Below, in pieces: positions 2,869-31,784 of a DNA stretch of 42,838 nt; the first letter of the stretch is position 1; each line of letters starts with the position of its first letter. The translations under genes and the position numbers were made by a program. The notes beneath the pieces are model-generated. The model was not told the origin of the DNA. It saw only the letters and a list, made by a program, of their open reading frames with translations, and did not search any database. The stretch is from contig JBNLDK010000070.1 of assembly GCA_050304295.1 (NCBI GenBank), positions 1-42,838 on the forward strand. The letters are read 5' to 3'. The stretch is from Polyangiaceae bacterium (lineage in GTDB: Bacteria > Myxococcota_A > Polyangia > Polyangiales > Polyangiaceae).

Positions 2869-3041
2869 GACTGCTCCCATCCTGGAGCCTGCCCCCCCCG
2901 TCGCGGGCGACTCCAGCAGAAAGGATACCATCGCCAGACCGCCCCATGTAGGGACCTCCAATGAAGGCTCGACAAAGCGGCCGCGGACACCGATGCTTCC
3001 AAGATCGGGCGTTGCGTCCGCCCGACGGGCAAAGGGAACGG

Positions 3042-8393: not shown

Positions 8394-9225
8394 GACCGCC
8401 CGAGCTACCGGACGCGCCGCCATCCCACGGGATGCCGTACACCCCCGCGGCCCCGAACCACTCGGCCCCTTCGCCGCCCGCACCTGGATTGCCGCTGGAG
8501 CCACCCTGCGCCGCCCCCCCCAGCTCGGTGGGCAGCGCTCCCCCGTAGACGCCGCCGTTCGTGCTCGGTGGCCAGCCTCCTTGCGGTTCGCCGGCGGTGC
8601 CACCCAGTTGCGGCTCGCCTCCCGCGCCACCCGTTCGGTAGATGCCACCGGTCGGGTTGCCACCCATGCCCCAGTATCCCCCGAGGGGAGCTGAATAGAT
8701 CCCTCCGCTTCCGGGTTCCCATCCACCGGTACTGCCGCCGACCGGCCCCGGGTCGGCGCCGCCAGCACCGCCGGAATACGGGACGCCATACATGCCCCCC
8801 AGCCCGTCGAGACCCGTGCACGCCGCGGTCTCCGCGCAGTCGCTGTCGTCACAGTCGCCGCGACCATCGCGATCGTTGTCGACGCCGTCGGTGCACTCCT
8901 CGGTGCAGTCGCCACTCGTGCACTCGCTCGCGGCGGTGGACGTGCCCCCACAGGCCCCCACCAGCGCTCCGAACAGTCCCACCGCGACCGGCGCGCTCAC
9001 CTGTCGGCGCCACGCAGCCCAGGGAGTCACCGGCCGCGCAGCTCCGAGCTGATCCGCAACGTCGGCGAGGAACGTTCTGAGGGTCTCAGGATCAATGTGT
9101 GCCAAATGTGCCTCCGGGAGTTCGGCTCCGGCCGAGCGGTGGAGCAAGGATCGGACCAACGAGCACTGGCCCACTTCGGTGCTCTGAATCAAGGATTTCT
9201 GGCCCCAGTGGACGTGGAATGGCAC
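8386..9225 (-). CDS. Single-pass membrane protein with a MopE-like Cys/Asp-rich putative metal-binding motif and a Gly-rich GGxY/GGxxGG repetitive ectodomain.
   Basis: TM/signal-anchor VSAPVAVGLFGALVGACGG after a cytoplasmic N-terminus of about 75 aa. The motif CTDGVDNDRDGRGDCDDSDC resembles the myxobacterial MopE-type repeat. Start is GTG at 9225, so the 5' end is uncertain. The 3' end overlaps the kinase-like gene convergently by 8 nt. Confidence 0.5.
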   Translation of the reverse strand: MPFHVHWGQKSLIQSTEVGQCSLVRSLLHRSAGAELPEAHLAHIDPETLRTFLADVADQLGAARPVTPWAAWRRQVSAPVAVGLFGALVGACGGTSTAASECTSGDCTEECTDGVDNDRDGRGDCDDSDCAETAACTGLDGLGGMYGVPYSGGAGGADPGPVGGSTGGWEPGSGGIYSAPLGGYWGMGGNPTGGIYRTGGAGGEPQLGGTAGEPQGGWPPSTNGGVYGGALPTELGGAAQGGSSGNPGAGGEGAEWFGAAGVYGIPWDGGASGSSGGPT

Positions 9226-9514
9226 TGCGCGGCGCTTCGATTCCGGGTTCCCGCTCGAACGTGGACCATCCCATGGCCCACTCCCCTGGGGCCCCTACTT
9301 GCGCCACGTGTCCCGCAGGTGGCACGCCCCGACAAGCTCGCCGCCAGCGCGCCACCTGTGCCGCGTCGACCGCTGCGTCGGCCACTGCGCGACCAGGGTG
9401 CCGACATGCCGCGGCGCGCTCCCCTCACCGGACCAACCGACACTCCGATCTTCCGTGCGCGCGAGCTCCAGTCGGTTCCACCAGCCCGAGCGGAGTCGGC
9501 AACACCAGGGCCAT

Positions 9515-9550
9515 CTCGGATGTAAGTATCTGGAACTAAATATAAATAGC
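9515..9550. promoter_or_regulatory. Isolated AT-rich island in GC-rich DNA. It carries a TATAAAT -10-like box on the plus strand and TATTTAT on the minus strand, so it could serve as a promoter in either direction.
   Basis: The stretch ggatgtaagtatctggaactaaatataaatagctaacc is a sharp compositional outlier. It lies about 300 bp upstream of the 8386..9225 gene start. Confidence 0.3.
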
Positions 9551-9599
9551 TAACCGGGTCCGCGCCCGATCCGCACCGGGGGCGGGGCCGATCCTTGGT

Positions 9600-9980
9600 G
9601 GGGGTGGGGTCGCGGCGAAGGGGCGGTGGGGTCGAGACGAGCTGGCGGTGGGGTCCAGGCGAACCGGTGGCGGCCTCGGCGGCAGGGGTGCCCCCCTCGA
9701 TCCTGATGGGTGGGCGGTTCCCAGAGCGTTCCCTGCCAGCGGCGGCAGCATTCGGGCACCCGACCCACGAGAACCAGCGGTGCGCCGATCGACGACCGGG
9801 GTCGTGCCCGCGGCGAACCGGGGGTGGGGTCGCGGGTTGCTGGGGGTGGGGTCGCGGGTTGCCTGCGGTGGGCGAAACCAACGGGGTCACGAGGGAGCTG
9901 ACTGGGGTGGTGGTGCCTCCGAGCAGAGCGGTGGTGGGCCCGACCCTTTCTGGGGGTGGGCCCGGCCCTTTCTGGGGGTG
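9600..9980. repeat. Dispersed G-tract repeats (GGGGTGGGGTCGCGG, GGGGTGGGCCCGGCCCTTTCT and variants) that could form G-quadruplexes.
   Basis: Four or more GGGG tracts with short loops at 9601..9658. Near-duplicates lie at 9821..9863 and 9941..9990. Confidence 0.6.
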
Positions 9981-10067
9981 GGCCCGAGCTTCGCGGGGAT
10001 CGCCGCGATCGCCGGCGCCAACCCCGCCCCGCACCGGACGAAAAGACCACGACGGGCAACCACCGGA

Positions 10068-10199
10068 GCGGCGCTCCGACGCTCGCACGGCGGCGCTCCG
10101 ACGCTCGCAGGACGGCGCTCCGACGCTCGCTCGGCGGCGCTCCGACGAGCGCAGGGCGGCGCTCCGACGCTCGCTCGGCGGCGCTCCGACGCTCGCTCG
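10068..10199. repeat. Six tandem 22-bp repeats (GCGGCGCTCCGACGCTCGCWSG), a minisatellite.
   Basis: Units start at 10068, 10090, 10112, 10134, 10156 and 10178 with 1-3 mismatches. There are no spacers, so this is not CRISPR. Confidence 0.85.
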
Positions 10200-10305
10200 C
10201 TCTGGCGGGGACTGAGCGAGGAGCTGTCGCGGGAGGTGGAGCCCGCTGGCCGTGGCGGGTTCCTCACGGTGCGCCTGGCGCAGCATACGGGGCGCCAGCG
10301 CCACT

Positions 10306-11535
10306 TCAGTCCACTCTGCAGGTGAACTCATGCACTCCGAGCTCACCACCAGCACCGCCCGCGAAGATCTCGAAGCCGAAGAACACGTCCGTCAAGTAGA
10401 AGCTTGGGAGAATGCCATACTCGTCCGCGGCGTGGAGAAACTCGGTCAGGTCGAGCGACACCTGCGCGATGTCGGAGCGCGCCACGAAGGTGACGAGCGG
10501 GACGGGGCCGTAGCCGGCGGGTCCGTTCCAGGTGCCGACCCAGACGTCCCAGGTGTACCCCGCGATGACGGCGTCGCCCTCATCCACGCCGGGCGGCGAG
10601 GTGTCGCTCGGCGCGTGCAACCACAGCCTCATCATGCCGTCGATCGCGTCGAGGTAGGTGGTGATCGGCGGAGCGTGGGCCAGCCAGAGCTCGCAGTTGG
10701 TCGCGAAGCTCTCGGTGGTGCCGCCCCACGCGAGGGACGTCTCGATGCTGGCGATCGCTGAAACCTGGCGAGGGAGGCGGTCGGTATCGGCGGTGGAGAA
10801 GACGCCCCCGCGAGTGTCACCGTTGGAGCCGATGTAGAGGGAGGGGAACGACACGGGCTCGCCGGCGCGCGACGAGACGCCGTACCCCTCGACCACCGTG
10901 AAGCTGTTGTCGACGTACTCGAGGATCAGATCCGTGTTGAGGGGGTCGCCGTAGTTGTTGTTCTGGATGACGTACTGCTCACCGTCGCGCAGCACCTTCG
11001 CGCGGTCGAGATCTCCCTCGGGCGAGGACTCGGTCGAGCCCACCGTGCCGAACAGTGTTCCCACCCAGCCCCCCGTGGCAGCGCGCCCCCCCGTCGCCTC
11101 CACGCCAGCGGCACCGCCGCTACCCGCGCTGCCCGCGGTGCCGCCCGGCGCCCCGCCCAGAGAGAGCTGGCCTCCGGTCGCGCCCGTGGGCTGTCCGCCA
11201 CCTCCCGACCCACCCGACTCGGCGCCGCCCGTCGGCTCGCCGCCGGTCGCGACTCCCCCGGATCCAAGCCCCCCAAGGCTCTCGACGCCACCGGTGCCGC
11301 CTTCCCCACCCAGCGCGCTGCCTCCCGTCGTGGTCTCCTCCGCGCCCCCGAGACCACCGGTGCCCCCTGCGCTGGACGCGCCGCCCCCGTGGTCACCGCC
11401 GGTGCTCGGACCCACTTCGCCCCCGGTGCCGCCGAATCCCGATCGACCCCCCGTCTCCCCGCTCGTCGAGTCGATCCCTCCCGAGCAGGCGGTGAGTGCC
11501 AGTAGCAACCACTCCCCCCGGACCCTCGGTGCCAT
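10306..11535 (-). CDS. Secreted lipoprotein glycoside hydrolase family 12 (endo-beta-1,4-glucanase/xyloglucanase-like) with a Gly/Thr-rich linker.
   Basis: I place the start at the internal ATG at 11535, which begins MAPRVRGEWLLLALTACSGG (lipobox). The C-terminal domain matches the GH12 catalytic motifs as I recall them from Rhodothermus Cel12A: YVIQNNNYG (cf. YRVINNVWG), NCELWLAH (nucleophile Glu, cf. ELMIW) and FGFEIFAGGAGG (acid/base Glu, cf. GFELWEGGAGL). Confidence 0.65.
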   Translation of the reverse strand: MAPRVRGEWLLLALTACSGGIDSTSGETGGRSGFGGTGGEVGPSTGGDHGGGASSAGGTGGLGGAEETTTGGSALGGEGGTGGVESLGGLGSGGVATGGEPTGGAESGGSGGGGQPTGATGGQLSLGGAPGGTAGSAGSGGAAGVEATGGRAATGGWVGTLFGTVGSTESSPEGDLDRAKVLRDGEQYVIQNNNYGDPLNTDLILEYVDNSFTVVEGYGVSSRAGEPVSFPSLYIGSNGDTRGGVFSTADTDRLPRQVSAIASIETSLAWGGTTESFATNCELWLAHAPPITTYLDAIDGMMRLWLHAPSDTSPPGVDEGDAVIAGYTWDVWVGTWNGPAGYGPVPLVTFVARSDIAQVSLDLTEFLHAADEYGILPSFYLTDVFFGFEIFAGGAGGELGVHEFTCRVD

Positions 11536-11572
11536 GCCGAGCAGGGTAGCCGACTCGACGCGCGACCGCGAG

Positions 11573-14500
11573 TCAGCGCCCCACGCGCTGCTCTGCAACC
11601 TGCATCAGCTGCCGAACTTCGGCCAGCTGGGTCATCAGCTCCTGCAGCTTCTCCCCGAGGGCGCGGGTGTCCGCGCGACGGCTGCTCAGAGCGTCCACCA
11701 GGGGGTACACCATGCGCTCGACCAGGGCGACCTGGCGGTCGAGCAGCGTGTCGAGCCCCGGCGGGGGCTGGTTCTGGACCTCGATCTGGAGCTGGTGCCC
11801 GCCGAGCTGCGCCAGCGCTTGCCCAAGCCGCTCGAGCTGCGGTTCGATCCACGCCGGTGGAGCGTCCGTTGACGGCTCGAGACGGGGCTCGGCAGCTCGC
11901 CGGTCGGCAGCGGCGGTGGCGTCGGACACGGCAGCTCGGATCGCTTCCAGTCGCGATCCCAGGCCGGACAGCGTTCCCGTGAGGCGCGTGACCGGGTCGT
12001 CGTCCTGACCCCCCATCGTCTGCAGGCGGGAGAACTCGCTCTTGATCTGTTGCCAGCGCGCGCTCTGCTCGGGAGTCATCCTTTCCCGCAGCTCCGCCAG
12101 CCGCAAGAGGTTGGACTCGGCGCCGGTCGTCAGAGTCTGCGCCTCCCCGGCGTAGTGGTCGTCGAGCAGCGCCTCGAGCTCGTCGTCGTTGAGCGCCGCC
12201 ACCACCTTCTCCGCCAGCTTGTTCATGTTGCGGTAGCTGCCCTGCAACTTGAACGGAGGCTCGGTGCGGTAGGCGTCTTCCATCGACGCGCTCCGGATGT
12301 ACTCCTGGTTCACCTGGAGCAGGAGCTCCTGGCACTTGCCAAGCTTCTTGAGCACGCTCACGATCTCCTGCACCTCCACCGCCGAGTAGTCGTGTTCGAG
12401 CTCATTGGTGGGGATGTCTGCCCCCTGAGCCATGCACAAGAAACGGTACACGTCCGCGGGAGCGCGCCCCGCCAGGGGGGCGAGCACCGGGTTCGACGTG
12501 AGCGAGTTCTCCAGGTACGAGAGGGCGAAGTCCTGGCCCTTGCCCTCGAGAATGTCGCCCAGGTTGTAGGTGTCCGCGCGGTTGGCCAGCATGTCGGGGA
12601 TCTGGAATTTCTCCCCGCTCTCGGTGTACGGATTGCCCGCCATCACGACACAGAATCGCTTTCCGCGAAGATCGTAGGTCTGGGTCTTGCCGCGCCAGAC
12701 CCCTTCCACGCGGCGCTGCGCGTCGCACAGGCTGATGAACTTCTGGAGTAGCTCCGGATTGGTGTGCTGGATGTCGTCGAGGTAGAGCATCACGTTGTTG
12801 CCCATCTCGAAGGCGAGGTTGATCTTCTCCACCTCCTGACGCGCCGTCGCGCTGCTCGCCTCGGCGGGGTCGAAGGAGGTCACCGTATGCCCCAGGGAGG
12901 GTCCGTTGACCTTCATGAAGACGAGACCCAGGCGATTGGCCACGTACTCCATCAGAGTGGTCTTGCCGTACCCCGGGGGAGACACCACGAGCAAAAGCCC
13001 CATCGTGTCGGTGCGCTTGGTCGCCCCGGCCGCTCCGATCTGCTTGGCGAGGTTCTCACCGATGAGGGGCAGGTAGGTCCCGTCGATCAGACGATTGCGC
13101 ACGAAGGCCGAGAGCACCCGGGGCTTGAGCTCCTCGAGCCGCAATCGGCCGCGTTCCCGCTCCAGGACCTGGTGGCGCAGCTGCCGGTAGGCCTGGTACC
13201 GGGGGACGCGGTCCTCCACGAACTCGTCAAGGCGCGTCGTGAACTCGTCGAGACGGAGCTTCATCACCCCGTCCTCGATCCGTGGATGACGGCCGAGCAG
13301 TCCGGTCACGACCACCTGGCCCATCGCCTCGGTCGACTCGCGGTCGAGCTCCGCGCCGGTGATGAGCAGCACGGCGGCTTCCACCACCGCAGGAGCCAGC
13401 TCTGCGAGGCGCTCGGCCCGGAGCCCCAGCTCGTCGTCCCCGGTCGCGAGGAAGCCGCGTAGCCAGGCAAGCGCCACGCGGAACCGATCGGCGGACGACT
13501 GCCCGAGAGCGCGCAGGTCGTCCTCCAGCGCGAGACGCTGGGCGCGACGATCCAGGTTGGCGAGGAGCGCGTTCACGAGCTGTGTGGCCTCGCTGCTGGT
13601 GGTGAAGCGCAACCGCTCCTGCGCCAGCTCCGCGGCGAGGTACTGGCCGGCCGCGCGCACCTCCGCGCTGGAGGCGGGAAGCTCCTGGCTCCGCAGAAAG
13701 TTGGCAATCCGGGTCGCCAGCTCCGCAGAGAAGTCGTTCTGCGCTGCGGGACTGGAGAAGGTGCCGCGCAGGCGACCGAGACTCTGCCCCAGTCGGCCCA
13801 GGCGCGCCTTCAGCTCGCGGTCCTCGAGCTCCGACCAGAAGAACGCGGCCAGCGCCCGTGACGTCGGAGCAAATCGAAGCAGCCCCGCCGTGCTCCGCAG
13901 CGACAGCACCCGGTCTAGGACTGCGGCGCCGTCAGCGTCGTGGACCCCGCGCTCGTAGCCCTCGTCGTAGCGATTGGCGGCCCACTGACGCACGATCTCG
14001 AGCAGGCGCCCCGCGACGACCGCGTCGCTCAACTCCGCGAGCGTCAATCCCTGCTCGGCCCCCTCGGCCGCGCGCAAGACGGACGCAGCGAGGTACTCCC
14101 CACGATAGACGGTGGGACTCTCGCTCACCAGCGGCTGGTCCCAGAACTCCCGGGTCGCCTCGAACGCCGCGTCCTCGACCGCCGCCAGGTAGTCGGTGCC
14201 CGCCAGGTGGAACCGCAACTCGCCCTCCCGCGGGATCAGAGTCAGCTCCAGCGCCTGTCGATTCACGCTGAAGCGGTGCCGCCCCAGCTTGATCAGGTCG
14301 TCGCCCCCCTCGAACAGGTCGATCCTGTCCCGGAGCCCGCGGAGCGCGTCCTGACGCGCCGCCTTCAGCTTCGACTCGATCTCCTCGGCGTGCACCGCGT
14401 CCTCGAGCTCGCGCAGGCGCTCCGCGAAGTCGCGCACCTTGAGAACCAGTGCGTCCGCCGCAAAGTACGCGTTGAGCTCATCGGGCTCCCGGAACGACTG

Positions 14501-16885
14501 CACTCGCCGGGCGATCCCCTCGAAGATGCGGTTCGCCGCGGAGAGGATCGAGCCGGCTCGCCGCTGCCGCTCGTCGAGGAGCTGCTGCTTCTTCGCACCA
14601 AAGGCGTCGTAGACCTCTTCCCGCTTGGCCGTGAGATCACCGATGAACTCGTCGAACTCACCGAAGCGGCCCTCCAGCTCCTCGAGCTGCACCAGGAGCC
14701 GCGACAGCCCCTCGTCGCAGCGCGCCGGAGTGTCGGCCTGGGCAATCGCTCCACTCACACTCTGGGAGAAGAGCTGGAACTGGGCAGCAAACTCGGCCCT
14801 CCCCTCGCGCACCGCGATCGACTGGCGGCGGTTCTCCAGCAAAGCTCGGACGCGATTGAGCTGCGCCAGCACCTCGCTGATCCCTTCGAGCATCTTGGCC
14901 CGCGCCACGGGATCGTCCGTCTCGAGCCCAGTCACCACCTCGCCGAGCGCGTCGACCCCCTGCCCCGTCGCCTCGAGATCCTCGGTGAGGGGCGCGAGAT
15001 CCGTGCTCTTGTCCACCGCCTCGATCCGCCCAGCGATCGTCTCCAGGCGATCGAACAGTGGCCGCAGCGAGGCCTCGTCGAGGAGAAAGGAGACGCATGC
15101 CTGGCTGACCTCGTCGTACGCCGCGACGACCTCGGCCTCCAGGGTCGCGAGCACATCGAGGTCGATGTAGCGCAGCTCACGGAGGGTGATCACGTGTCCC
15201 CGCTGGCTTCGCAACGTGGTCAGCGTCTTCATGAACCCGTCCACGCTGGTCAGATTGCTGGGCTGGGTCCCTCGCAGGACGACGAGTTGGCGCTCCCGAG
15301 CGTCGGTCAGCGCCTCGCCCGCGCGACGCTGGAGCGCGACCACCTTCTCGTACTCGTCGATGACCAGCTCAGCCGTCTGCCGGATATCGTGCAGCGGAGC
15401 GGCGAGATCACCCACCGCCTCGTGGGCGAGCCAGTAGTATGCGTCCGTCGCACGCACGACCGCGGCCACCAGATCCTCGAAGGTCTCTCGCCGTGGCTCT
15501 GGATGCTCCGCCAGACGACAGATGCTCAGCGCGTCGGAGATCCCGCGCACCAGATCGGCATTCCCCACCTTCCCCAGGAAGCCACCCGCCGAGGGGGCGC
15601 GCGCCGCATGCTCCGCCGAGACGAAGGGAGTCTGCCAGATCTGCATCGGGTGCACGCGGGTGGGCTCATCGCCAGCGCTACGAAAGACGACCATCTTGCC
15701 GTCGTCGAACAGCGAGTACCCATGGCACGTCAGGGGCCGCTGCACCTGCTTCTGGATCAGGTTGTAGGGCAGCATCACGTACCGCCCCTCCTCGGCCTGG
15801 TAGAAGACGTAGAGCACGTCCTCGCCGTTGGGCGACCGGACCGCACGGTGGAACATCAGGCCCGCGACGTCCCCCTCGAAGGTCTTCGTTTCGCCACTGA
15901 CGAGGTAGTAGCCCCCGGGAAAGATCAAGCCGTGGTCCTCGGGCAGCTCGACGCACGCCTGTCCGATGTTGTCGATCCGATCGACGCGCTTGGTGCGGGT
16001 GTTGAAGACGAGGTAGCGATCCTGACTCTCACCGTAAGGACGCACCTTGAGCAAGATCAGCGTCCCGACCTTTGCGTACTGCACGTCGGCGTCGTCGACA
16101 GACTGGCGCGGGTCGTCCACCGGCTCCGAGTAGATACCCTCCCCGGTCGCCGTGTTGTTCTCGATCTTCACCGTGAGATCGCCACCGGTGGTCTCGACGA
16201 ACACCTGGTCCAGGATGTTCAAGTGCGGATAGCGCCCGGCGACCTGGTTGTCCCGGGTGGCCACACTCCACTCGAAGCCGTGAGTGGGCGGCACCTCGAG
16301 GTCGCGCTCGCCGCGGTTGTCGATGTAGCTCGTACGCCCCTGCGGATCGAGGGCCCAGCGAAACACTCGAACGTCATCGATCTGCCCGCCCACCTGGAAG
16401 ACCGCGAGCAGTTTCGTCTCCGTGGTGCGGAGTTGCACCAGACGAGCGTCCTTGTAGAAGCTGTAGAGTTCAGAGAACTCGCGCACGAACTGCGGGGACT
16501 CGAGGAGCGCGAATGTGTCAGGCGGAAGCTCGTGCAGATCGAATCCGTCGTCGCCCTGCCTGAGCTCGTGCAAACCCAGAACGTCCCGCACGTGGGTCTC
16601 GGTTCGCAGACCCACGAACACGTTGTAACCAAAGAGCAGGTGCCCCCCGACCTGGACGATGTCGCGGGGCACACAGTTGTTCTCGGTCCGGACCCGCGTG
16701 TTCCCGAGGACACTCAGCTCGATCCCGCCGAACACCTCCTGGCGCCTGGCGTTCAGGCGCTGCACCCGCCCGCCCAGCTCCGCTGCCTGTTGGGCGAGCC
16801 GGGCCCGCAGCACCTCGTAGCTGCCCCCAGCCGCTACGTCGGCACCCGAGCCCGCGTCCCTGGGGGTCGATTCCGACACCGCCAC
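11573..16885 (-). CDS. Giant (1,770 aa) AAA+ ATPase of the AAA_5 (MoxR/dynein-related) type. It has an N-terminal beta-rich region and a roughly 900-aa predicted coiled-coil/helical region; I cannot assign it to a named family.
   Basis: Walker A is VVSPPGYGKTTL and Walker B is VMLYLDDIQH. The sensor/Arg-finger region FCVVMAGNPYTESGEKFQIPDMLANRADTY fits the AAA_5 pattern. The GTG start at 16883..16885 lies 1 nt after the flotillin TGA stop. Confidence 0.7.
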   Translation of the reverse strand: MAVSESTPRDAGSGADVAAGGSYEVLRARLAQQAAELGGRVQRLNARRQEVFGGIELSVLGNTRVRTENNCVPRDIVQVGGHLLFGYNVFVGLRTETHVRDVLGLHELRQGDDGFDLHELPPDTFALLESPQFVREFSELYSFYKDARLVQLRTTETKLLAVFQVGGQIDDVRVFRWALDPQGRTSYIDNRGERDLEVPPTHGFEWSVATRDNQVAGRYPHLNILDQVFVETTGGDLTVKIENNTATGEGIYSEPVDDPRQSVDDADVQYAKVGTLILLKVRPYGESQDRYLVFNTRTKRVDRIDNIGQACVELPEDHGLIFPGGYYLVSGETKTFEGDVAGLMFHRAVRSPNGEDVLYVFYQAEEGRYVMLPYNLIQKQVQRPLTCHGYSLFDDGKMVVFRSAGDEPTRVHPMQIWQTPFVSAEHAARAPSAGGFLGKVGNADLVRGISDALSICRLAEHPEPRRETFEDLVAAVVRATDAYYWLAHEAVGDLAAPLHDIRQTAELVIDEYEKVVALQRRAGEALTDARERQLVVLRGTQPSNLTSVDGFMKTLTTLRSQRGHVITLRELRYIDLDVLATLEAEVVAAYDEVSQACVSFLLDEASLRPLFDRLETIAGRIEAVDKSTDLAPLTEDLEATGQGVDALGEVVTGLETDDPVARAKMLEGISEVLAQLNRVRALLENRRQSIAVREGRAEFAAQFQLFSQSVSGAIAQADTPARCDEGLSRLLVQLEELEGRFGEFDEFIGDLTAKREEVYDAFGAKKQQLLDERQRRAGSILSAANRIFEGIARRVQSFREPDELNAYFAADALVLKVRDFAERLRELEDAVHAEEIESKLKAARQDALRGLRDRIDLFEGGDDLIKLGRHRFSVNRQALELTLIPREGELRFHLAGTDYLAAVEDAAFEATREFWDQPLVSESPTVYRGEYLAASVLRAAEGAEQGLTLAELSDAVVAGRLLEIVRQWAANRYDEGYERGVHDADGAAVLDRVLSLRSTAGLLRFAPTSRALAAFFWSELEDRELKARLGRLGQSLGRLRGTFSSPAAQNDFSAELATRIANFLRSQELPASSAEVRAAGQYLAAELAQERLRFTTSSEATQLVNALLANLDRRAQRLALEDDLRALGQSSADRFRVALAWLRGFLATGDDELGLRAERLAELAPAVVEAAVLLITGAELDRESTEAMGQVVVTGLLGRHPRIEDGVMKLRLDEFTTRLDEFVEDRVPRYQAYRQLRHQVLERERGRLRLEELKPRVLSAFVRNRLIDGTYLPLIGENLAKQIGAAGATKRTDTMGLLLVVSPPGYGKTTLMEYVANRLGLVFMKVNGPSLGHTVTSFDPAEASSATARQEVEKINLAFEMGNNVMLYLDDIQHTNPELLQKFISLCDAQRRVEGVWRGKTQTYDLRGKRFCVVMAGNPYTESGEKFQIPDMLANRADTYNLGDILEGKGQDFALSYLENSLTSNPVLAPLAGRAPADVYRFLCMAQGADIPTNELEHDYSAVEVQEIVSVLKKLGKCQELLLQVNQEYIRSASMEDAYRTEPPFKLQGSYRNMNKLAEKVVAALNDDELEALLDDHYAGEAQTLTTGAESNLLRLAELRERMTPEQSARWQQIKSEFSRLQTMGGQDDDPVTRLTGTLSGLGSRLEAIRAAVSDATAAADRRAAEPRLEPSTDAPPAWIEPQLERLGQALAQLGGHQLQIEVQNQPPPGLDTLLDRQVALVERMVYPLVDALSSRRADTRALGEKLQELMTQLAEVRQLMQVAEQRVGR

Positions 16886-16886
16886 G

Positions 16887-19181
16887 TCAGCCCGCGCGAA
16901 GTTCCCCGAGACCCAGCTCCTGGACCTTCTCGATCAGTCCTTGCAGCCTCGACTGCTGGTCGGGAGTCGCCGCCACCATCAACTTGCCGAGCACCGCCGA
17001 CAGCGTCAGGCTCTGGATCTCGCCTGCCGAGAGCGCGGGTCGCGAGAGGATCTCCTTGAGATCCTGGCTCAGGCTCGAGTCGCCAGCGAGGTAGTCCTTC
17101 AGCACTTGCCGCGCCGTCTGACTGCTGTCGACGAAGCCGTCGATGCTCTGCCCCACGCTCACGGCCTTGATGAAGCGGTCGAAGAACTGACCGTCACCAC
17201 CGACGAGCTGCACCTTCGCGTTACCCAGGGCCTTGCCCATGACCTCGGCCTGGTGCCCAGCGACATCCTTGGCCACGCGAATCCGAGACAGCTCGATCTC
17301 CTTGTCCGCCTCCAGGCGGATGCGGAACTCCTCGTGCTCGCGGGCCGTGCCCTCCATCGCCTTGAGAGCGGCGGCTTTCTCGTGCAGACCCGCAGCCTCG
17401 GCGAGCAGTTTCTCGCGGGTCGCGGTGGCCTCGGCCTGCCCCTGCTTCTCGACCGCCACCGCGTCGGCCTCCTTGACCCGGGCCTGGGCGAGCCCCTGCT
17501 GCTCGGCGCCGGCGGCCTCGGCCAGGAGCTTCTCTCGTGTCGCCACGGCTTCCGCCTGGCCCTTCCTCTCGGCGCCGGCCGCTTCGGCGAGAAGCTTCTC
17601 CCGCGTCGCGACCGCCTCCGCCTGCCCCTGCTTCTCGATCGCCCCCGCTTCGGCTTCCCGGACCTTCACCCGCGCGAGCCCTTGCCGTTCCTCGCCGGCC
17701 GCCTGCGCCTGCATCGTCTCCAGGGTGACCCGCGCCTGCGCCAGGCCCTCCTTCTCGATCGCCTGTGCGTTGGCCTCCTTGACGGTGACCTCGGCGAGCC
17801 CCTTCGCCGCCTCCTCGGCCTTGACGCCATCGGCCAGGCGGATCTTCGCCTTGGCGTGCTTGTCGGACGCCTCGAGCGTCGCGTCGGCCTCGACGATCTT
17901 CTGTCGGGCGTGGAACTTCGCCGCCTCTTCCTGAGCCTCGGCGGCCTTGAGCATCTTCACGAGCTGCTCCTGCGCCTCGGCCTCCGCCATGATCCGCACC
18001 ACATCCTTGTTCCGGGTAGCCTCGGACACGGCGCGCAGGTCCTTGATCCGCTCCTCCTCCTCGGCCACCGTCCGATCGACGGCCACCCGGGTGCGCACCA
18101 CATCGGCGATCGCCTTCTTCTCGACCTCGATCGCCTTCTCCTTCTCGATGCGCTGCAGCTCCACCTCGCGCTCACGCGCGATGATCTCGAGCCCCTTCTC
18201 CTTCTCGACGCGCTCCCCTTCGACGGCGACGACGCGTTGCCTACCCCACTGCGCCACCTCCACCTGGCGCTGCTTGTTCTCGTCGGCGATCGCAATCTCC
18301 TCGTCCGACTTGATCCGCGCCAGTTCCGCCTTGCGGCGCTCCTCCGCCTGCACGCGGAGCGTCTCGGCCTGCTCGCGCGCCTGCATGGTGGCGATCTCGC
18401 GCCCCTGCTTCGCCTTCGCGTCCGCCTCCTGCCGCTGCAGCTCGAGGATCGCCTCCTCCGCCTCGACGTTCTGCTTGGTGATGATCTTGCGCTCGTTCTG
18501 CTGGTGATCGTTGGTGAGCACGTTCTGGGCCGCCGTCAGCTCCGTGATCTTGCGGATCCCCTGCGCATCGAGGATGTTCTTCGGGTCGTGGTCCTTGAGC
18601 GGGGTCTGCTCGAGGTAGTCGATCGCCGCGTCTTCGAGAACGAACCCGTTCAGGTCCTTGCCGATGACCTCGATGATCTGGTCGCGGAAGCTCTCCCGTT
18701 CCTTGTACAGCTCCTCGAACTCGAGTCGCTTGCCCACGGTCTTGAGCGCCTCGGAGAACTTCGCGGTGAAGAGCTCCTCGAGCGCGGCGTGCTTGCTGGC
18801 GCGCGCGCACCCGATGGACTGCGCGACCTTGAGCACGTCCTCCTGGGTCTTGTTGACGCGCACGAAGAACGCCACCTTGATGTCCGCGCGGACATTGTCC
18901 TTGCAGATCAGCCCGTCCGCCCCTCGGCGATCGATGTCGATGGTCTTGACCGAGATGTCCATGTACTCGGCGCGGTGAACCACGGGCAGCACCAGCGCCC
19001 CGGTGAAGGTCACGATGGGCTCAGCCGTCATCTTGTTCACGATGAGCGCCGTGCCCTGATCCACCTTGCGGTAGAACTTCCCGAGCAGAACGAGGAACCC
19101 AACCAAGACGAGGACCACGAACCCCGCCACCGAGCCGATCAGGATCAGGTTCTGATCGTCGAATAACCCCTCACCGCCCAT
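16887..19181 (-). CDS. SPFH/band-7 flotillin-family protein (YqiK/FloT-like) with a long Ala/Glu-rich coiled-coil.
   Basis: N-terminal TM LILIGSVAGFVVLVLVGFLVLL, then an SPFH core (ALIVNKMTAEPIVTFTGALVLPVVHRAEYMDISVKTIDI...). The ATG at 19181 has a GGAGGAG RBS 6 nt upstream, whereas the track start at 19202 has none. Internal near-duplicate 66-bp repeats encode GQAEAVATREKLLAEAAGAE twice. Confidence 0.85.
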   Translation of the reverse strand: MGGEGLFDDQNLILIGSVAGFVVLVLVGFLVLLGKFYRKVDQGTALIVNKMTAEPIVTFTGALVLPVVHRAEYMDISVKTIDIDRRGADGLICKDNVRADIKVAFFVRVNKTQEDVLKVAQSIGCARASKHAALEELFTAKFSEALKTVGKRLEFEELYKERESFRDQIIEVIGKDLNGFVLEDAAIDYLEQTPLKDHDPKNILDAQGIRKITELTAAQNVLTNDHQQNERKIITKQNVEAEEAILELQRQEADAKAKQGREIATMQAREQAETLRVQAEERRKAELARIKSDEEIAIADENKQRQVEVAQWGRQRVVAVEGERVEKEKGLEIIAREREVELQRIEKEKAIEVEKKAIADVVRTRVAVDRTVAEEEERIKDLRAVSEATRNKDVVRIMAEAEAQEQLVKMLKAAEAQEEAAKFHARQKIVEADATLEASDKHAKAKIRLADGVKAEEAAKGLAEVTVKEANAQAIEKEGLAQARVTLETMQAQAAGEERQGLARVKVREAEAGAIEKQGQAEAVATREKLLAEAAGAERKGQAEAVATREKLLAEAAGAEQQGLAQARVKEADAVAVEKQGQAEATATREKLLAEAAGLHEKAAALKAMEGTAREHEEFRIRLEADKEIELSRIRVAKDVAGHQAEVMGKALGNAKVQLVGGDGQFFDRFIKAVSVGQSIDGFVDSSQTARQVLKDYLAGDSSLSQDLKEILSRPALSAGEIQSLTLSAVLGKLMVAATPDQQSRLQGLIEKVQELGLGELRAG

Positions 19182-19383
19182 GCTGCTCCTCCGTGCTGGC
19201 ATCCCGCCATGGCAGGACGACCCTCGTTCCTCGGGGCACCCCGCTCCCGAGCCAGGCGGAGACTAGTGCGGGGACCGCGATGGAGCGACCAAAAAGCAGC
19301 GAGGAGGCACGCGGCGCTCCGCGGCGTGGCTGTGGACGAGGTCAGGCCGGTTGTCGCGCTCTTCTGCCACCGGAGCGTCGGCG

Positions 19384-20112
19384 CTACTCCTTGTTCCCCA
19401 GCATCGGGTCGAGGGGCTCCACCAGGTACGCCTCGCGCTGCTCGTCGTAGCCGATGATCAAGGCCCGGTCGCCGCGGCCGAGCTTCCCGGGTTCGGCACG
19501 GACCGCCAGGATGAGCCCAGCCCCGCCATCCTCCAACTGAGCCTGGCCGAAACCCTCGTCGACCCTGCCCGTGCTGACCACACAGACTTGACCCACGAAG
19601 TCGCGGCGCCGCTTCGCCGCCTGAATCTGGAATAGCTGGCCCAGGGGGCGCGTGACGACGCTGGCGATCGGTAGCGCCAGCACCAGCGCCACGAGGAGTA
19701 CCACGATCCCGCCCACCCAGATCGGGCCTGGGACCAGCGGCGCGAGGTAGCGAGACCCCACGAAGGACAGCACGAACCCCGCCGCCACGAGCACGCTCCC
19801 CACCACCGTCGCCGGGGCGTGACGGAGGCTGAGCGCCGAGAGCAGCCCAGTCAATCCCCCCCCAGTCGCGCTCCCGCCCGCGACCGCACCCTCGACCGCT
19901 CCCTCTGCGACCGCCTCCGCAGCCGCCTCCCCGAGCGCCTCGGCGGCCCCTTCCGCCGCAGCCTCGGCGGCGCCCTCTGCGGCCCCTTCGAAGAGACCGT
20001 CGAGGTCCACCGCTCCCACGATCACCAGCAGCCAGTACAGCACCGCCAGCACCAGACCGATCGTGAACACGATGGTGGGAAAACCGAGAACGATGGCGAT
20101 GAACTCCGACAT
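19384..20112 (-). CDS. NfeD/YqiJ-like membrane protein (N-terminal TM segments plus C-terminal OB-fold), the usual flotillin operon partner.
   Basis: MSEFIAIVLGFPTIVFTIGLVLAVLYWLLVIVGAVDLDG..., then a C-terminal beta-rich region VGQVCVVSTGRVDEGFGQAQLEDGGAGLILAVRAEPGKLGRGDRALIIGYDEQREAYLVEP. It sits immediately upstream of the flotillin gene on the same strand, the arrangement seen in yqiJK and yuaF-floT. Confidence 0.65.
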   Translation of the reverse strand: MSEFIAIVLGFPTIVFTIGLVLAVLYWLLVIVGAVDLDGLFEGAAEGAAEAAAEGAAEALGEAAAEAVAEGAVEGAVAGGSATGGGLTGLLSALSLRHAPATVVGSVLVAAGFVLSFVGSRYLAPLVPGPIWVGGIVVLLVALVLALPIASVVTRPLGQLFQIQAAKRRRDFVGQVCVVSTGRVDEGFGQAQLEDGGAGLILAVRAEPGKLGRGDRALIIGYDEQREAYLVEPLDPMLGNKE

Positions 20113-20270
20113 GCGTGGCCCTCGCCGCGGAGTCTACCACGGCGCCGCCCCCCACCCGGAACAACGCCCACGAGGGGCGCCGCCGTCCACCATGAGCGTC
20201 ACCGGCGCCAGCGCGCTGCAAGAGTGCCCCACACCGCCCGGCACGGCACGTGGGGGCCGCGGCTGCCACG

Positions 20271-21884
20271 CTACGGCGCCGTCGGTTCGGGGCGCCGCCG
20301 CTCTCGCCGGCGCGCCGGGCGCGCGCGCGGCACCCAGATCTCGTTCGGGCGAATCGCCATGCCCGCGCGGGTATGCCCGTGGTCGCTGGTGAACAGACTC
20401 CCGTCGCGTCGATAGTGGCGCCGGATGAGCGGACGGAGCGGGACAACGTGCGCGCTGTCGCCGAGAAGGATGGTCTGGTAGTGGTGACCTTTGATCTTGG
20501 CGGTGATGTCGTCGAGCATCGCGTCCTGGATGTCGTCGTTGCCCGTCTTGAGCACGTCGCGGATCGCCATATTGTGAGCCGACGTCTCGCCGTGCCCCGC
20601 GAGCTGGGCGTAGTGTCCCGTCCCCGGGCTGAACACGGGACCCGGCAGGGTCCTCAACTTGGCGAGGGCCGCCGCCACCGCCTGGCGGTCCTCGGTCGTG
20701 GGACGGACTCGCTCGTGCCGGAGATGGAGCAGGCCCAACGCGACGAGGACCGCCACATGGCAGACAGCCAGTGCTCGGGAGCGCCAGCGCTCGTCATCTC
20801 GCGTGGAAAACCAACCGATCAACAATCCCGCCAGCAGCGCGTCGGCGGCAAAGGCGGGAATGAGCACGTTCACCCAGCCGTCGGTGTGCAACATGGAGAC
20901 GTAGCCCGAGACGTTGCCCATCAACCAGAGCCCGCCGTACAGAACCGTCTTCGCCCAGCCGCGACCGGTCGTGATCGGGGCGGCGAGCGCGGCCACCGCC
21001 AGCACGCCATGGATCCCCACCGTTGACCAGAAGTGCCTGAGGAGGAACCGATGCCACTCGTTCCAGCGCCATTCGTGCTGACGCGGCGCCTCGAACACGT
21101 AGAACCAGAACCATCCGTCGGTGGCGGCCTCCAGAGCAACCAGCGCCGCCAACCCCACGAGCAGCGCCGCCAGCGCCAGCGCGAAGAATCGGCGCCGATC
21201 CGCGAACAGCGTGTAGCCGATCGGAGCCAGCGCCAGCAGGAACGCTTGCTGCTTGGTGAAGCACGCGGCCACTAGCAGCAACCCCGCGACCACGGCCGAC
21301 GACAACCCGCGCCGGAACCTGACGAGCCAGCACGCCCCCAGGACCAGCACCAGCATCAGCGTGTCGACCCGCGCGAGCCCGAACCAGAGCTCGGTGGCGG
21401 GAAACGTCGCGACGAACAGGACGACCGAGATCAACCCCGCCCACCAGCAGTGCGTCTCCCGACGCACGAAGTCGAAGAGCACCAGGAGCGACAGCCCCCA
21501 GGCGAGGACCGCCACCCCGCGCAACGCCGGAAGCCCGACCCCGACGAAACGCGCTGCAAGCGCCGAGACCCAGTAGTAGAGCGGCGGGTAGATGTAGGGC
21601 ACGAACTCGGCCCGGGGCGCCACGTACAGAGGCTGGCCCGCCACCACGCGCGCGACGTGGTCGACCATCGCGCCCTCCATCCACTCGATCTCGTACGGGT
21701 ACTGCACGCGAGTCACCGTGGTCACCGCCACCGCGATCAGGACGCGGATACCCACGTAGAGCGCGACCACGCGGAAACCGAGCTCGACCCAGCTCGTCAG
21801 CGTGCGGGGCGAGCGGGGCAGGAACTCGTCGATGCGGCGCATCACCCACGCAGTACTCACGCCGGTCAGCTCTAGCGGGTCCAC
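20271..21884 (-). CDS. Polytopic GT-C-fold membrane glycosyltransferase-like protein (ArnT/PMT-related superfamily).
   Basis: About 12 predicted TM helices. The first periplasmic loop carries the acidic YPYEIEWMEGAMVDH motif, and aromatic-rich loops follow. Start is GTG at 21884, or alternatively the ATG at 21842. Confidence 0.5.
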   Translation of the reverse strand: MDPLELTGVSTAWVMRRIDEFLPRSPRTLTSWVELGFRVVALYVGIRVLIAVAVTTVTRVQYPYEIEWMEGAMVDHVARVVAGQPLYVAPRAEFVPYIYPPLYYWVSALAARFVGVGLPALRGVAVLAWGLSLLVLFDFVRRETHCWWAGLISVVLFVATFPATELWFGLARVDTLMLVLVLGACWLVRFRRGLSSAVVAGLLLVAACFTKQQAFLLALAPIGYTLFADRRRFFALALAALLVGLAALVALEAATDGWFWFYVFEAPRQHEWRWNEWHRFLLRHFWSTVGIHGVLAVAALAAPITTGRGWAKTVLYGGLWLMGNVSGYVSMLHTDGWVNVLIPAFAADALLAGLLIGWFSTRDDERWRSRALAVCHVAVLVALGLLHLRHERVRPTTEDRQAVAAALAKLRTLPGPVFSPGTGHYAQLAGHGETSAHNMAIRDVLKTGNDDIQDAMLDDITAKIKGHHYQTILLGDSAHVVPLRPLIRRHYRRDGSLFTSDHGHTRAGMAIRPNEIWVPRARPARRRERRRPEPTAP

Positions 21885-25702: not shown

Positions 25703-25819
25703 CTAGAACACCGATCAGCTTGCCCGACGCGGAAAACACCTGTCTCCGGGCGCCAGCAGGGGCGAGACGCCCGGAGACAGGTGCTTCCCGCTGGCACTGC
25801 TGCCCTGTCGGTGTTCTAG
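25703..25819. promoter_or_regulatory. Nested inverted repeats in a divergent promoter region: an outer 12-bp perfect IR (ctagaacaccga/tcggtgttctag) encloses an inner 16-bp perfect IR (cacctgtctccgggcg/cgcccggagacaggtg) with a 15-nt spacer.
   Basis: Outer arms at 25703..25714 and 25808..25819. Inner arms at 25737..25752 and 25768..25783. The element lies between the PMT gene start (25667, minus) and the 25908 plus-strand gene. Confidence 0.6.
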
Positions 25820-25907
25820 GTCGTTGATTTGGAACAACAAACAACCGCTCCCCCTTGCGGTTGCGGTTGAGTCGTGCCTGGGGTCGAATCCTGGAGCCGC
25901 CTTCGCC

Positions 25908-28310: not shown

Positions 28311-28397
28311 AAAAATGCAGGCACCGGAGCTCGCCATCGAGCCCCCCCGCGCAGAGAACCCAGCGCGAGCCCAGCGGGTCGGTGTAGAAGAGACGCG

Positions 28398-31300: not shown

Positions 31301-31784
31301 CATCCAGACGTTCTCGGGCTCGCAGACTTACCCGGACCGCCTGTTCACGTTGGGCGGCGTCGACAGCATGCGCGGCTTCCTCCAAGACAGCGTGATCCCG
31401 GAAGACATCGCGCAGCAGCTCCTCGACGAGGACTCGGGACTGAGCATCGAGCAGGTCGTGGTCCGGGGAGGCGACTTCTTCGTCAACCCCCGCAGCGAGC
31501 TCCGCATCCCGATCGCCACACCGAACGTTCAGACGGCCATCTTTCTCGACGCGGGAAATCTGTGGACCAGCGCCGCCAACTTGGGAGCCCGCGACCTGTT
31601 GAACCCGAAAAATATGCGCTACTCTGCCGGGACCGGCCTTCGGGTGGGAACTCCGGTGGGCCCCCTCGTTTTCGACTACGGATTCAACCTCCAGCGAGTT
31701 CTGGATGGCCTGGACGCGCGGCGAAGCAACCAGCGATTCTGGGAGGATCTCGGGGCGTTTCACTTCAGTATTGGGGTGTTCTGA
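28398..31784 (+). CDS. Omp85-family outer-membrane protein (BamA/TamA-like) with POTRA repeats and a C-terminal beta-barrel.
   Basis: Signal peptide MWRALLRWALVTALIVAGSPPAAAQ. The barrel carries the conserved GGVDSMRGF (RGY/F loop-6) motif and ends in the aromatic terminus FHFSIGVF. Alternative start at 28431. Confidence 0.75.
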   Translation: MPRPGDSPRRSMWRALLRWALVTALIVAGSPPAAAQEPDPAPGDVPSLVDLEADPAIESLLGQRVARIEIVVEGEGSAAPPELRRVLVGEPLSVEMSQRAIGELTDSGRYSSVRAAAIATPDGVVLELTAVRRYIVERVKVQGGKLDTGQTLRAAEIRPGQELSIRAVPRLENGVASFYAHHGYPNAAVHIELLDTDDPLRTVLVVHVEPGLPLRVERRRFELSPDPDDPRVLALVRRYSLPRGDRADEDRLNDADRELENRLRASGWHRAQVGHEVRRVVGSDVAALTVRVAAGPSFEIRFEGNRTFDAARLRQVLALDRTEDRSPLTLVERLRDHYVRHGFFDVEIEVEERATPDDVVHELFFAIRENGQVRVAAREYPCLTGDRTPREVGQEIDSFLGEELPGTKVFSSMDPATIDALYGPTQRTGARLAPPSFSPWSTYAPEVYDRARKHLQDLYRAEGYLSATVGPVRVIRRACAPRSPPGQCLPIGPRESPPAVCRYDEIGVPISEPQLDGSWTCQPDPARGLKCEPEVVLVIPVKLGPQSILYDVRFAGNERLAEQELAKIAQVKLGDPVSQPELDRATRRLLEAYAEEGFAFTSLDAALELSPDRTRARVTFRISESNRVTVRDIVIRGARKTNEGVIRRRIALQKGELYRRSAVRKTEERLAILGVFASVTVSLESPYVPAREKVVVVTVQEREPQYLDIKGGFSSGEGPRGALEYGHRNLGGGAVQLRLRAALNYLPDFLILEDDVKKKFQELQQDQGIGARLERQISASVEFPDIGLGPLFRLGVEGLSVRDNSRDFGISKNAGLVTLIYRPTRRITGQIGPSLELNEAGIFGEEEKGALQAYLVTNPTRRNLFRVPEGETVAFAQQVSATWDRRDNPLGATRGTFVSARIEHVRATPTDQLDELLRTRPVRGQSDEADVFDAIVSDFVRVSNRLAGYVPFGDRGLALALSVGWGVNIQTFSGSQTYPDRLFTLGGVDSMRGFLQDSVIPEDIAQQLLDEDSGLSIEQVVVRGGDFFVNPRSELRIPIATPNVQTAIFLDAGNLWTSAANLGARDLLNPKNMRYSAGTGLRVGTPVGPLVFDYGFNLQRVLDGLDARRSNQRFWEDLGAFHFSIGVF

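Follow-up and report, generated by a model that had tools for sequence, protein, structure and literature searches.

We analysed the genetic makeup of contig JBNLDK010000070.1 from the Polyangiaceae bacterium assembly GCA_050304295.1, a stretch of 42,838 nucleotides (nt) referred to throughout as the window, focusing on three consecutive reverse-strand genes that encode a YqiJ-type (NfeD-like) membrane protein, a YqiK-type flotillin and a giant soluble ATPase. A preliminary description of this DNA had considered flotillin operons to lack any described third component of this kind. The literature indicates otherwise, since the YqiJ/Band-7-flotillin/beta-propeller-AAA+ neighbourhood was reported by Ravi et al. 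in 2024 (mSystems, PMC11237479; bioRxiv 2020) and the Pseudomonas aeruginosa gene for the ATPase, bacE, belongs to an operon with reverse-transcription PCR (RT-PCR) evidence across the flotillin-ATPase junction. With the neighbourhood published and an orthologous operon named, the system is not novel, and the window copy is an ordinary member of it, strongly conserved and understudied. There is very little doubt about the identity of the three proteins and their linkage, and we deem it rather probable that the window module constitutes the three-gene core of this known flotillin module, with ATP-driven remodelling of a flotillin/YqiJ scaffold as a more tentative part of its function.

The reverse-strand location and the extent first proposed for the three genes are borne out by the sequence (Table 1), as is the single-base junction between the flotillin stop codon and the ATPase start codon, which reads ...GGC TGA C GTG GCG... 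in context. The ATPase start is identical in public gene calls on the same DNA (NCBI metagenome-assembled genome [MAG] assembly GCA_050303275.1), and a frame analysis of GC content at third codon positions (GC3) yields coding-type values of 0.86-0.91 for all three module genes. The module had been presented as tightly coupled; this holds for the flotillin-ATPase junction but not for the gap between the YqiJ-like and flotillin genes, which amounts to 181 nt, or to 202 nt under the public gene call that starts the flotillin at Met8. Neither sigma-54 consensus sites (allowing up to two mismatches; 42 matches in the whole scan against 38 expected) nor sigma-70-like sites were found in the presumed promoter region upstream of the YqiJ-like gene, for which the scan gave no promoters. 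The spacer between the YqiJ-like and flotillin genes contains no promoter-like or terminator-like site on the module strand, terminator-like sites in the scan were no more abundant than in shuffled sequence, and Rfam returned no match on positions 8300-20400. The one-nucleotide flotillin-ATPase spacing and the lack of a terminator-like site on this strand would fit a single transcript.

Table 1. Features of the flotillin module in the window (nucleotide positions in the window; aa, amino acids)
Feature	Position	Strand	Basis
YqiJ-type (NfeD-like) gene, 242 aa	19384..20112	-	Open reading frame (ORF) translation
Spacer between YqiJ-like and flotillin genes, 181 nt	19203..19383	-	ORF coordinates
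YqiK-type flotillin gene, 771 aa	16887..19202	-	
Conserved flotillin C-terminal segment, aa 622-691, HEEFR...IVGGDG-FFxxFxKAxSxGxxIDG	17130..17339	-	Alignment of 31 tails
Flotillin stop/ATPase start junction, TGA-C-GTG, 1-nt spacer	16885..16889	-	
Soluble ATPase gene, 1,770 aa, GTG start	11573..16885	-	
DUF3686 domain, N-terminal helix followed by beta-rich propeller-like domain, aa 36-484	15434..16780	-	
DUF7902 (PF25472), aa 606-688, inside helical linker (approximately aa 490-860)	14822..15070	-	Pfam, E 5e-20
Conserved middle domain, approximately aa 861-1264, small beta element followed by helical bundle	13094..14305	-	Invariant columns, AlphaFold 2 (AF2) secondary structure
AAA+ module with lid and C-terminal helices, approximately aa 1265-1640	11966..13093	-	
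Walker A, SPPGYGKTT	12956-12982	-	
Walker B, LYLDDIQH, invariant Asp-Asp	12764-12787	-	
158-nt region 5' of the YqiJ-like gene, presumed promoter site	20113..20270	-	

The ATPase, which had been left outside any named family, belongs to Pfam families DUF3686, DUF7902 and AAA and is labelled as a DNA repair ATPase by NCBI. The match to DUF3686 (PF12458) covers profile positions 1-448 of 448 with residues 36-484 (E 3.3e-205), and more than 6,000 homologues are found at E 1e-10 or better, with 55-62% identity and 92-100% coverage among the 120 listed. At 50% identity over its full length, the ATPase is the orthologue of P. aeruginosa BacE (PA3728/PA14_16190). Hydropathy reveals no convincing transmembrane (TM) segment. 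The coiled coil of about 900 aa originally proposed for this protein is overstated: residues 861-1260 are modelled as a helical domain with short beta elements and contain many invariant residues, with motifs such as RY(D/Q)EGYERGxHDxD and AGLLR(F/Y), in a region (approximately aa 861-1264) where Pfam is silent. Residues 490-860 are poor in Pro and Gly and rich in charged residues, and are designated here as a helical linker; a crude Fourier heptad test, which is a weak test, detected no strong 3.5-residue periodicity anywhere and gave no confirmation of a long canonical coiled coil.

The ATPase motifs quoted in the preliminary description (SPPGYGKT, LYLDD and GNPYTESGEKFQIPDMLANRADTY) are all present, with AAA and AAA_5 matches at residues 1298-1423, the latter marginal (30.6 bits versus a cut-off of 22). 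The AAA+ module also holds a sensor-1 motif (GNPYTE) and the motif PDMLANRAD, both of which, together with SPPGYGKTT, are identical in 84 of 84 loci. In the same 84 loci, the Walker B motif invariably reads h-D-D-IQH, with Asp-Asp rather than Asp-Glu. The AAA+ fold is closest to MoxR, midasin and dynein modules. Searches beyond Pfam yielded sub-threshold RuvB and CDC48 P-loop matches only (NCBIfam) and P-loop matches of 35-80 residues at E 2e-4 or weaker (PDB sequence search).

The assignment of the second protein to the SPFH/flotillin family stands. Its N-terminal TM or hydrophobic segment (aa 20-38) is followed by an SPFH/Band_7 domain (aa 40-190, nt 18633-19085), which is recognized by Pfam once the low-complexity part has been removed (PF01145 on the N-terminal fragment, E 2.2e-12, 47.8 bits versus a cut-off of 23.6). 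The Pfam scan of the full-length protein gives no match, presumably as a bias-filter artefact of the low-complexity helical part, and this does not constitute evidence against the SPFH assignment; NCBIfam likewise returned nothing for the flotillin. BLASTP aligns the protein to Escherichia coli YqiK over 455 aa spanning the SPFH and helical regions (27% identity, E 1e-38), and identity to P. aeruginosa BacD/PaFlo3 reaches 55% over 669 aa, making the window flotillin, on sequence grounds, its orthologue. The long helical region is rich in Glu and Ala, and contains an in-frame tandem repeat of a 66-bp (22-aa) unit present 2.5 times at 17492-17654 (QGQAEAVATREKLLAEAAGAE...). Downstream of it lies the conserved C-terminal segment, which is common to ATPase-linked flotillins of all sampled phyla according to both the tail alignment and tblastn, and which we put forward as a candidate docking site for the ATPase. 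A homology search with the flotillin tail alone recovered just 45 short fragments, and the two of these that were looked up both adjoin frameshifted DUF3686 genes.

The inner-membrane protein encoded first in the module has three hydrophobic segments by hydropathy (aa 14-32, 101-119 and 135-153), a linker rich in Ala and Glu, and a beta-rich domain at the C-terminus. Its proposed NfeD/YqiJ identity is upheld at the profile level, where hhalign matches a profile of 27 orthologous sequences to E. coli YqiJ over 128 columns covering TM2, TM3 and the C-terminal domain (probability 95.1%, E 3e-8), but not by Pfam, which reports no family at E values of up to 10, NfeD (PF01957) and DUF1449 models included. 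NCBIfam and PADLOC scans of the protein were likewise empty, and a PDB profile search with its alignment retrieved no relative. The Hymenobacter orthologue is annotated by NCBI as a DUF1449 family protein, and both YqiJ and YuaF are recognized as NfeD homologues that have diverged (PMC2636767). With 37% identity to P. aeruginosa BacC (E 7e-26), the protein is the BacC orthologue. Its Ala/Glu linker contains an in-frame tandem repeat of a 36-bp (12-aa) unit, present 2.5 times at 19901-19989; the lengths of this repeat region and of that in the flotillin differ among orthologues.

Conservation of the module was assessed by scanning one genome per GTDB species, which identified ATPase relatives in at least 568 stretches; the best 80 of these were analysed. 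They derive from Myxococcota, Actinomycetota, Gamma-, Beta- and Zetaproteobacteria, Acidobacteriota and Planctomycetota, with 46-58% identity over the whole ATPase. As determined by tblastn with the window proteins, the order YqiJ-like protein, flotillin and ATPase is found on one strand in 74 of the 80 loci. Of the 78 loci whose contigs contain any upstream sequence, 77 have a flotillin there; the remaining two contigs end too early. Taking all loci together, a same-strand upstream flotillin is present in 86 of the 87 loci holding upstream sequence. Of 89 loci, 85 have a BacD-type flotillin and one more (L078) a truncated flotillin C-terminus; a YqiJ-like homologue precedes the flotillin in 76, and the sole locus truly devoid of flotillin is L049. 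The same trio occurs in Deinococcus, in Hymenobacter (Bacteroidota) and on the Pseudomonas fluorescens megaplasmid pQBR103, so that the linkage extends over Myxococcota, Actinomycetota, Pseudomonadota, Acidobacteriota, Planctomycetota, Bacteroidota and Deinococcota. A profile-free search with ATPase residues 1-500 among 1.84 billion cluster representatives returned 775 clusters, 266 of them at 1e-30 or better, and full-length family members always measure 1,600-2,000 aa. In each of the five most divergent full-length representatives, which have 32-36% N-terminal identity and include one from a locus of 24% GC, the ATPase gene comes immediately after one for an SPFH protein, and a small protein of some 200 aa is encoded ahead of the latter.

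Recurrence in 86 of 87 loci places this arrangement far beyond chance and leads us to reject fortuitous adjacency. The neighbourhood survey proposed in the preliminary description therefore finds ATPase homologues in consistent association with SPFH and NfeD-like genes, down to the most divergent members of the family. Viewed from the ATPase side, linkage to flotillin is essentially obligate over at least eight phylum- or class-level lineages. The flanking genes of the window are kept near the module in none of the 80 related loci; the upstream PMT_2/PMT glycosyltransferase and the downstream glycoside hydrolase family 12 (GH12) gene, considered as possible module genes, were accordingly discarded. 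PspA and DUF2170 genes are each present in only 16-19 of 89 loci, and PLD genes in 10. Unsupervised clustering of neighbours places DUF2170 and PspA_IM30 upstream of the module in 18 gammaproteobacterial loci and PLDc_2 downstream in nine. The distribution suggests that the invariable core of the published PspA-containing operon is YqiJ-flotillin-ATPase, with PspA, DUF2170 and PLD as lineage-specific additions.

Several related loci present features of their own. Insertions between the flotillin and ATPase genes occur in three loci, among them a Zetaproteobacteria MAG with two tandem PD-(D/E)XK transposase genes (PDDEXK_2, Rpn-like) exactly at this position (L064:6042-7942) and a locus with a 3.4-kb insertion that includes an NYN-domain gene (L076). 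A gene for a rhomboid-family intramembrane protease (Pfam Rhomboid, E 4e-19 in L050) adjoins the module in eight loci, downstream of the ATPase in seven (L028, L040, L044, L048, L050, L055 and L059) and upstream in one (L088:3192-3857). In six gammaproteobacterial loci (L022, L040, L044 [7578-7820], L052, L055 and L079), an ORF of about 80 aa with weak TerB/EF-hand similarity (E about 5e-3) sits between flotillin and ATPase; it is a possible extra operon component and appears in neither of the two operon publications. On pQBR103 (L086; P. fluorescens SBW25, 87166-106269), the module directly follows DUF2491, DUF350 (YjfL), DUF1190 (YjfM) and glutathionylspermidine-synthase-family genes, a set that corresponds to the other PspA-linked group, yjfIJKLMC of E. 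coli, but lacks PspA in this case. In two long-read metagenome assemblies (L092 and L093), the flotillin and DUF3686 genes are split into many short ORFs, reflecting either assembly frameshifts or pseudogenised copies.

The spacing between flotillin and ATPase genes varies with lineage. Among Actinomycetota, whose median gap is about 1.5 nt, 16 of 18 have gaps of up to 13 nt, counting 4-nt GTGA/ATGA overlaps, as do 9 of 21 Myxococcota. None of 26 Gammaproteobacteria does; their gaps have a median of about 118 nt and reach at most 680 nt. Start-codon choice in this comparison favours short gaps, but the gammaproteobacterial minimum is set by in-frame stops. Tight coupling is thus a habit of certain lineages and not a property of the system. 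It had been argued that such coupling implies co-translation and fixed stoichiometry. The 1-nt gap does fit translational coupling here and in Actinomycetota, but the long gammaproteobacterial gaps do not allow this to be generalized, and spacing carries no information on stoichiometry.

The functional model we favour is one in which the flotillin and the YqiJ-like protein would build an oligomeric SPFH-NfeD-type scaffold at the cytoplasmic face of the inner membrane, and the ATPase would dock on it; the probable contacts are the propeller-like domain at the N-terminus of the ATPase and the conserved C-terminal extension of the flotillin. The ATPase would then spend ATP to remodel the scaffold, either by driving its assembly and disassembly or by loading and releasing clients, and this activity would serve membrane maintenance or the handling of envelope stress. 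ATP-driven scaffold remodelling in such a role is a plausible but tentative proposal. Three observations favour the flotillin/YqiJ pair over PspA as the direct partner of the ATPase: the adjacency of flotillin in all but one locus, compared to 16-19 of 89 for PspA; the C-terminal extension shared by ATPase-linked flotillins; and the correlated divergence of flotillin and ATPase. More tentative still is the specific version in which YqiK-type flotillins of this subfamily would have an obligate, dedicated, non-proteolytic AAA+ motor that docks on the flotillin C-terminal extension and drives cage assembly, uncoating or remodelling independently of PspA.

A number of points qualify or weigh against this model. 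Pairwise divergences of flotillin and ATPase are correlated (r 0.80-0.85, compared to 0.85 for two domains of the ATPase against each other), as might be expected if both were inherited as a unit, but a mirror-tree correlation of this kind is inseparable from shared species phylogeny. The profile of ATPase-linked flotillin tails does not match E. coli YqiK (score -15), which has no ATPase partner; this is a weak comparison, involving a single ATPase-less flotillin. Physical contact between ATPase and flotillin is itself inferred, and our literature searches found no experiments on the ATPase in any organism. The module also appears dispensable in the laboratory, since deletion of the flotillin gene paFlo3 in P. 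aeruginosa reduces biofilm by about 20% with little other effect (PMC13086221). Every family member carries the Asp-Asp form of Walker B, and inspection of the sequence between Walker A and Walker B did not reveal an aromatic pore-loop motif. Together with the MoxR/dynein-type fold, these two features make a slow switch or remodeller more plausible than a fast threading unfoldase. Finally, MoxR-type ATPases normally pair with VWA partners, and clustering of the neighbours of related loci identified no VWA gene conserved near the module.

Alternative explanations assign the ATPase a different substrate or the module a different role. The ATPase might be a client-directed chaperone or quality-control machine for membrane proteins held in the flotillin cage, a non-proteolytic analogue of FtsH within HflK/C. 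The existence of an AAA+ partner for the HflK/C scaffold, the reported stabilisation of unfolded proteins by Staphylococcus aureus FloA-NfeD, the maturation or remodelling of specific client complexes by the MoxR-type relatives NorQ and CbbQ, and the rhomboid protease genes at eight loci are all in line with this idea, yet no client is kept in the neighbourhood and the ATPase has neither a protease domain nor a VWA adaptor. Sequence data alone cannot separate this explanation from scaffold remodelling, and we regard it as unlikely but worth serious consideration. A motor acting on PspA, a polymer-forming member of the ESCRT-III superfamily, is a further candidate, with the ATPase as a Vps4-like disassembly machine that the flotillin and YqiJ-like protein would only recruit, and with PspA encoded elsewhere in this organism. 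The module directly follows DUF2170/Tir-chaperone and PspA genes in Gammaproteobacteria and Bacteroidota; an analogy to Snf7-Vps4 is drawn by Ravi et al., who suggest that the abbreviated operons work with a PspA encoded elsewhere (PMC11237479); and work cited in PMC10948618 reports that PspA is connected to the membrane by an SPFH protein in Bacillus subtilis. Set against the near-constant presence of flotillin, the sparse distribution of PspA makes this quite unlikely.

Two other explanations can be given far less weight. An anti-phage or abortive-infection system, coupling a membrane scaffold to an ATPase effector or sensor, would account for a patchy distribution resembling horizontal transfer (PMC13086221), for copies on megaplasmids such as pQBR103, for PLD-family genes after the ATPase in 10 loci and perhaps for the unusually high identity across phyla (about 50%), but this degree of conservation is far above that usual for defence genes. 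PADLOC-DB v2 yields only P-loop matches of 30-50 residues in the ATPase (mad8, E 5e-4; IetA, E 5e-3) and none in the other two proteins, no relatives are found in IMG/VR viral contigs, and only 13 of 72,556 plasmid records carry the module, most of them chromids or mislabelled chromosomes. The window flanks are moreover of a housekeeping nature (Fpg, RpiA, HemE, CcmE and BamA-like genes) and do not resemble a defence island, leaving a defence role very improbable. The notion that the ATPase repairs DNA, and lies next to membrane-protein genes by coincidence, stems from the Pfam description of PF12458 ('ATPase involved in DNA repair') and the NCBI name. It can also invoke weak P-loop matches to RuvB, which is the top Foldseek match (E 2e-6), and the location of recJ two genes downstream in P. 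aeruginosa. Beyond the name and P-loop-level similarity to RuvB, it has no basis: Pfam detects no DNA-related domain in the ATPase, the genomic context consists of membrane proteins, and our searches found no literature supporting the label experimentally, nor any mentioning DUF3686 or PF12458. We consider it hardly credible, and reject a stand-alone DNA-repair role. The name 'DNA repair ATPase' carried by more than 6,000 proteins is probably a systematic misannotation.

The remainder of the window, which has a GC content of about 69%, encodes a Ser/Thr kinase with TPR repeats, PMT-family glycosyltransferases, a BamA-like Omp85 protein, Fpg, RpiA, an HtrA-like protease, PP2C, HemE and CcmE, with genes for a PMT_2 glycosyltransferase and a GH12 protein as direct neighbours of the module. 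Since these are ordinary chromosomal functions, the module does not lie in a mobile or defence island. The product of the kinase gene (2952-8390, forward strand), 1,813 aa in length, combines a Ser/Thr kinase domain at the N-terminus with a very long array of TPR repeats and is unrelated to the module; proteins of this architecture are typical of Myxococcota-like genomes. An 867-aa protein with a weak Spermine_synth match (E 4.5e-4, below cut-off) is encoded at 25707-28307 on the forward strand, about 5.6 kb from the flotillin module and adjoining the gene for a 1,157-aa POTRA/Omp85 protein (28311-31781). Membrane-bound proteins resembling spermine synthase recur as partners of PspA operons (Ravi et al. 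2024, PMC11237479), and the location of this gene at such a distance from the module may be a coincidence.

Two repeat arrays lie outside the module. Positions 9553-10221 contain about 670 bp of direct repeats with a strict periodicity of 22 bp, comprising some 30 units in several sub-arrays of differing unit sequence (for example, GCGGCGCTCCGACGCTCGCACG, present 5.9 times at 10068-10196), with spacings that are always multiples of 22. The array falls within a stretch without a convincing gene (8393-10306), its period is not a multiple of three and it has no Rfam match. A 15-bp tandem repeat of about 10 copies (CCACCGGTGCCAGCC) occupies positions 2510-2675, where a candidate reverse-strand ORF with a Beta_helix Pfam match (85-3303) overlaps other candidate frames; this repeat gave rise to false sigma-54 matches.

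What the present analysis adds to the published picture is the assignment, made by sequence comparison, of the 'novel AAA+ ATPase' of Ravi et al. to DUF3686, and hence to the 'DNA repair ATPase' of databases and to BacE, together with the near-obligate linkage to flotillin as seen from the ATPase, the conserved flotillin tail and the invariant Asp-Asp Walker B. The module itself will come as no surprise to specialists in the comparative genomics of the phage-shock-protein (PSP) system. Deletion phenotypes of bacterial flotillins are notoriously weak. A near-constant partner ATPase provides a biochemical handle on flotillin function, amenable to ATPase assays, Walker mutants, pull-downs and cryo-electron microscopy, and tractable hosts are available in P. 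aeruginosa, Myxococcus xanthus and Stenotrophomonas. If confirmed, a dedicated flotillin motor would be the bacterial counterpart, for SPFH scaffolds, of Vps4-ESCRT-III or Hsc70-clathrin, and would render thousands of 'DNA repair ATPase' database entries wrong.

The closest described system is the PSP-associated operon of Ravi et al., with domain architectures and gene order exactly as in the window. That operon also combines CesT/Tir-PspA and, in some Proteobacteria, a PLD-family hydrolase (PMC11237479), accessory genes that our unsupervised clustering recovered at the same positions; the window corresponds to what these authors term the abbreviated form, consisting of flotillin, YqiJ-type protein and AAA+ ATPase. 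Their account proceeds from the flotillin side, where the ATPase is reported 'in some cases', whereas from the ATPase side the association is essentially obligate; it also lacks the Pfam identity of the ATPase (DUF3686) and experiments.

Experiments at the level of the operon are available for the orthologous bacABCDEF operon of P. aeruginosa, the 'biofilm-associated cluster' PA3732-PA3727 (Macé 2008, Wallart 2024, PMC10948618). This locus encodes, in order, DUF2170 (206 aa), PspA (231 aa), a 213-aa protein, a 688-aa protein, the 1,746-aa DUF3686 ATPase, PLDc_2, YaeQ, RecJ and LasB, and recJ and lasB serve by their positions to anchor the numbering from PA3732 to PA3724, thereby identifying BacE (PA3728/PA14_16190) as the DUF3686 ATPase. 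The bacC, bacD and bacE genes have the same order and strand as the window genes (37%, 55% and 50% identity, respectively), whereas bacA (DUF2170/CesT-like), bacB (PspA) and bacF (PLD) have no counterpart, tblastn with BacA, BacB and BacF giving nothing in the 42.8-kb window at E < 1; it is on this basis that we regard the window module as the abbreviated three-gene form. RT-PCR products cross every bac junction, including bacD-PA14_16190, BacB to BacF are up 6-13-fold in a bacA mutant, and a sigma-54 promoter has been proposed (PMC10948618). The window differs in its flotillin-ATPase gap (1 nt versus 149 nt in P. aeruginosa) and in that no such sigma-54 promoter is seen at the module. Published phenotypes, namely the loss of biofilm, rhamnolipid and virulence in bacA and bacB mutants (PMC10948618), concern those two genes and not the ATPase. 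PA3728 figures among genes recurrently mutated in cystic-fibrosis isolates (PMC8190622), PA14_16190 is otherwise mentioned only in passing (PMC8855297), and the patchy distribution of paFlo3 has been read as horizontal transfer (PMC13086221).

The first two window genes are homologous to E. coli yqiJ-yqiK and B. subtilis yuaF-floT, and have the same order. E. coli lacks the third gene, with sibD/ibsD coming after yqiK, and the window flotillin is about 220 aa longer than YqiK, with a conserved C-terminal extension that YqiK lacks. To our knowledge, HflK/C-FtsH, in which an SPFH cage surrounds an AAA+ protease, is the only well-understood SPFH scaffold with an AAA+ machine. It offers a functional analogy for the flotillin and its ATPase, but homology goes no further than the AAA+ fold common to both: FtsH is anchored in the membrane, is a member of the classical AAA clade and has a protease domain, whereas the window ATPase is soluble, MoxR/dynein-like, devoid of a protease domain and some 1,100 aa longer. 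Sequence identity to MoxR-type proteins (NorQ, CbbQ and RavA) and to other AAA_5 proteins (midasin and dynein) is only about 14-16%, and the window ATPase departs from them in its Asp-Asp instead of Asp-Glu Walker B and in about 1,260 aa of N-terminal domains without counterpart. Vps4 and ESCRT-III embody the same concept, that of a soluble AAA+ motor recycling a membrane-bound polymer, and PspA, a bacterial relative of ESCRT-III, is encoded in the extended forms of this very operon.

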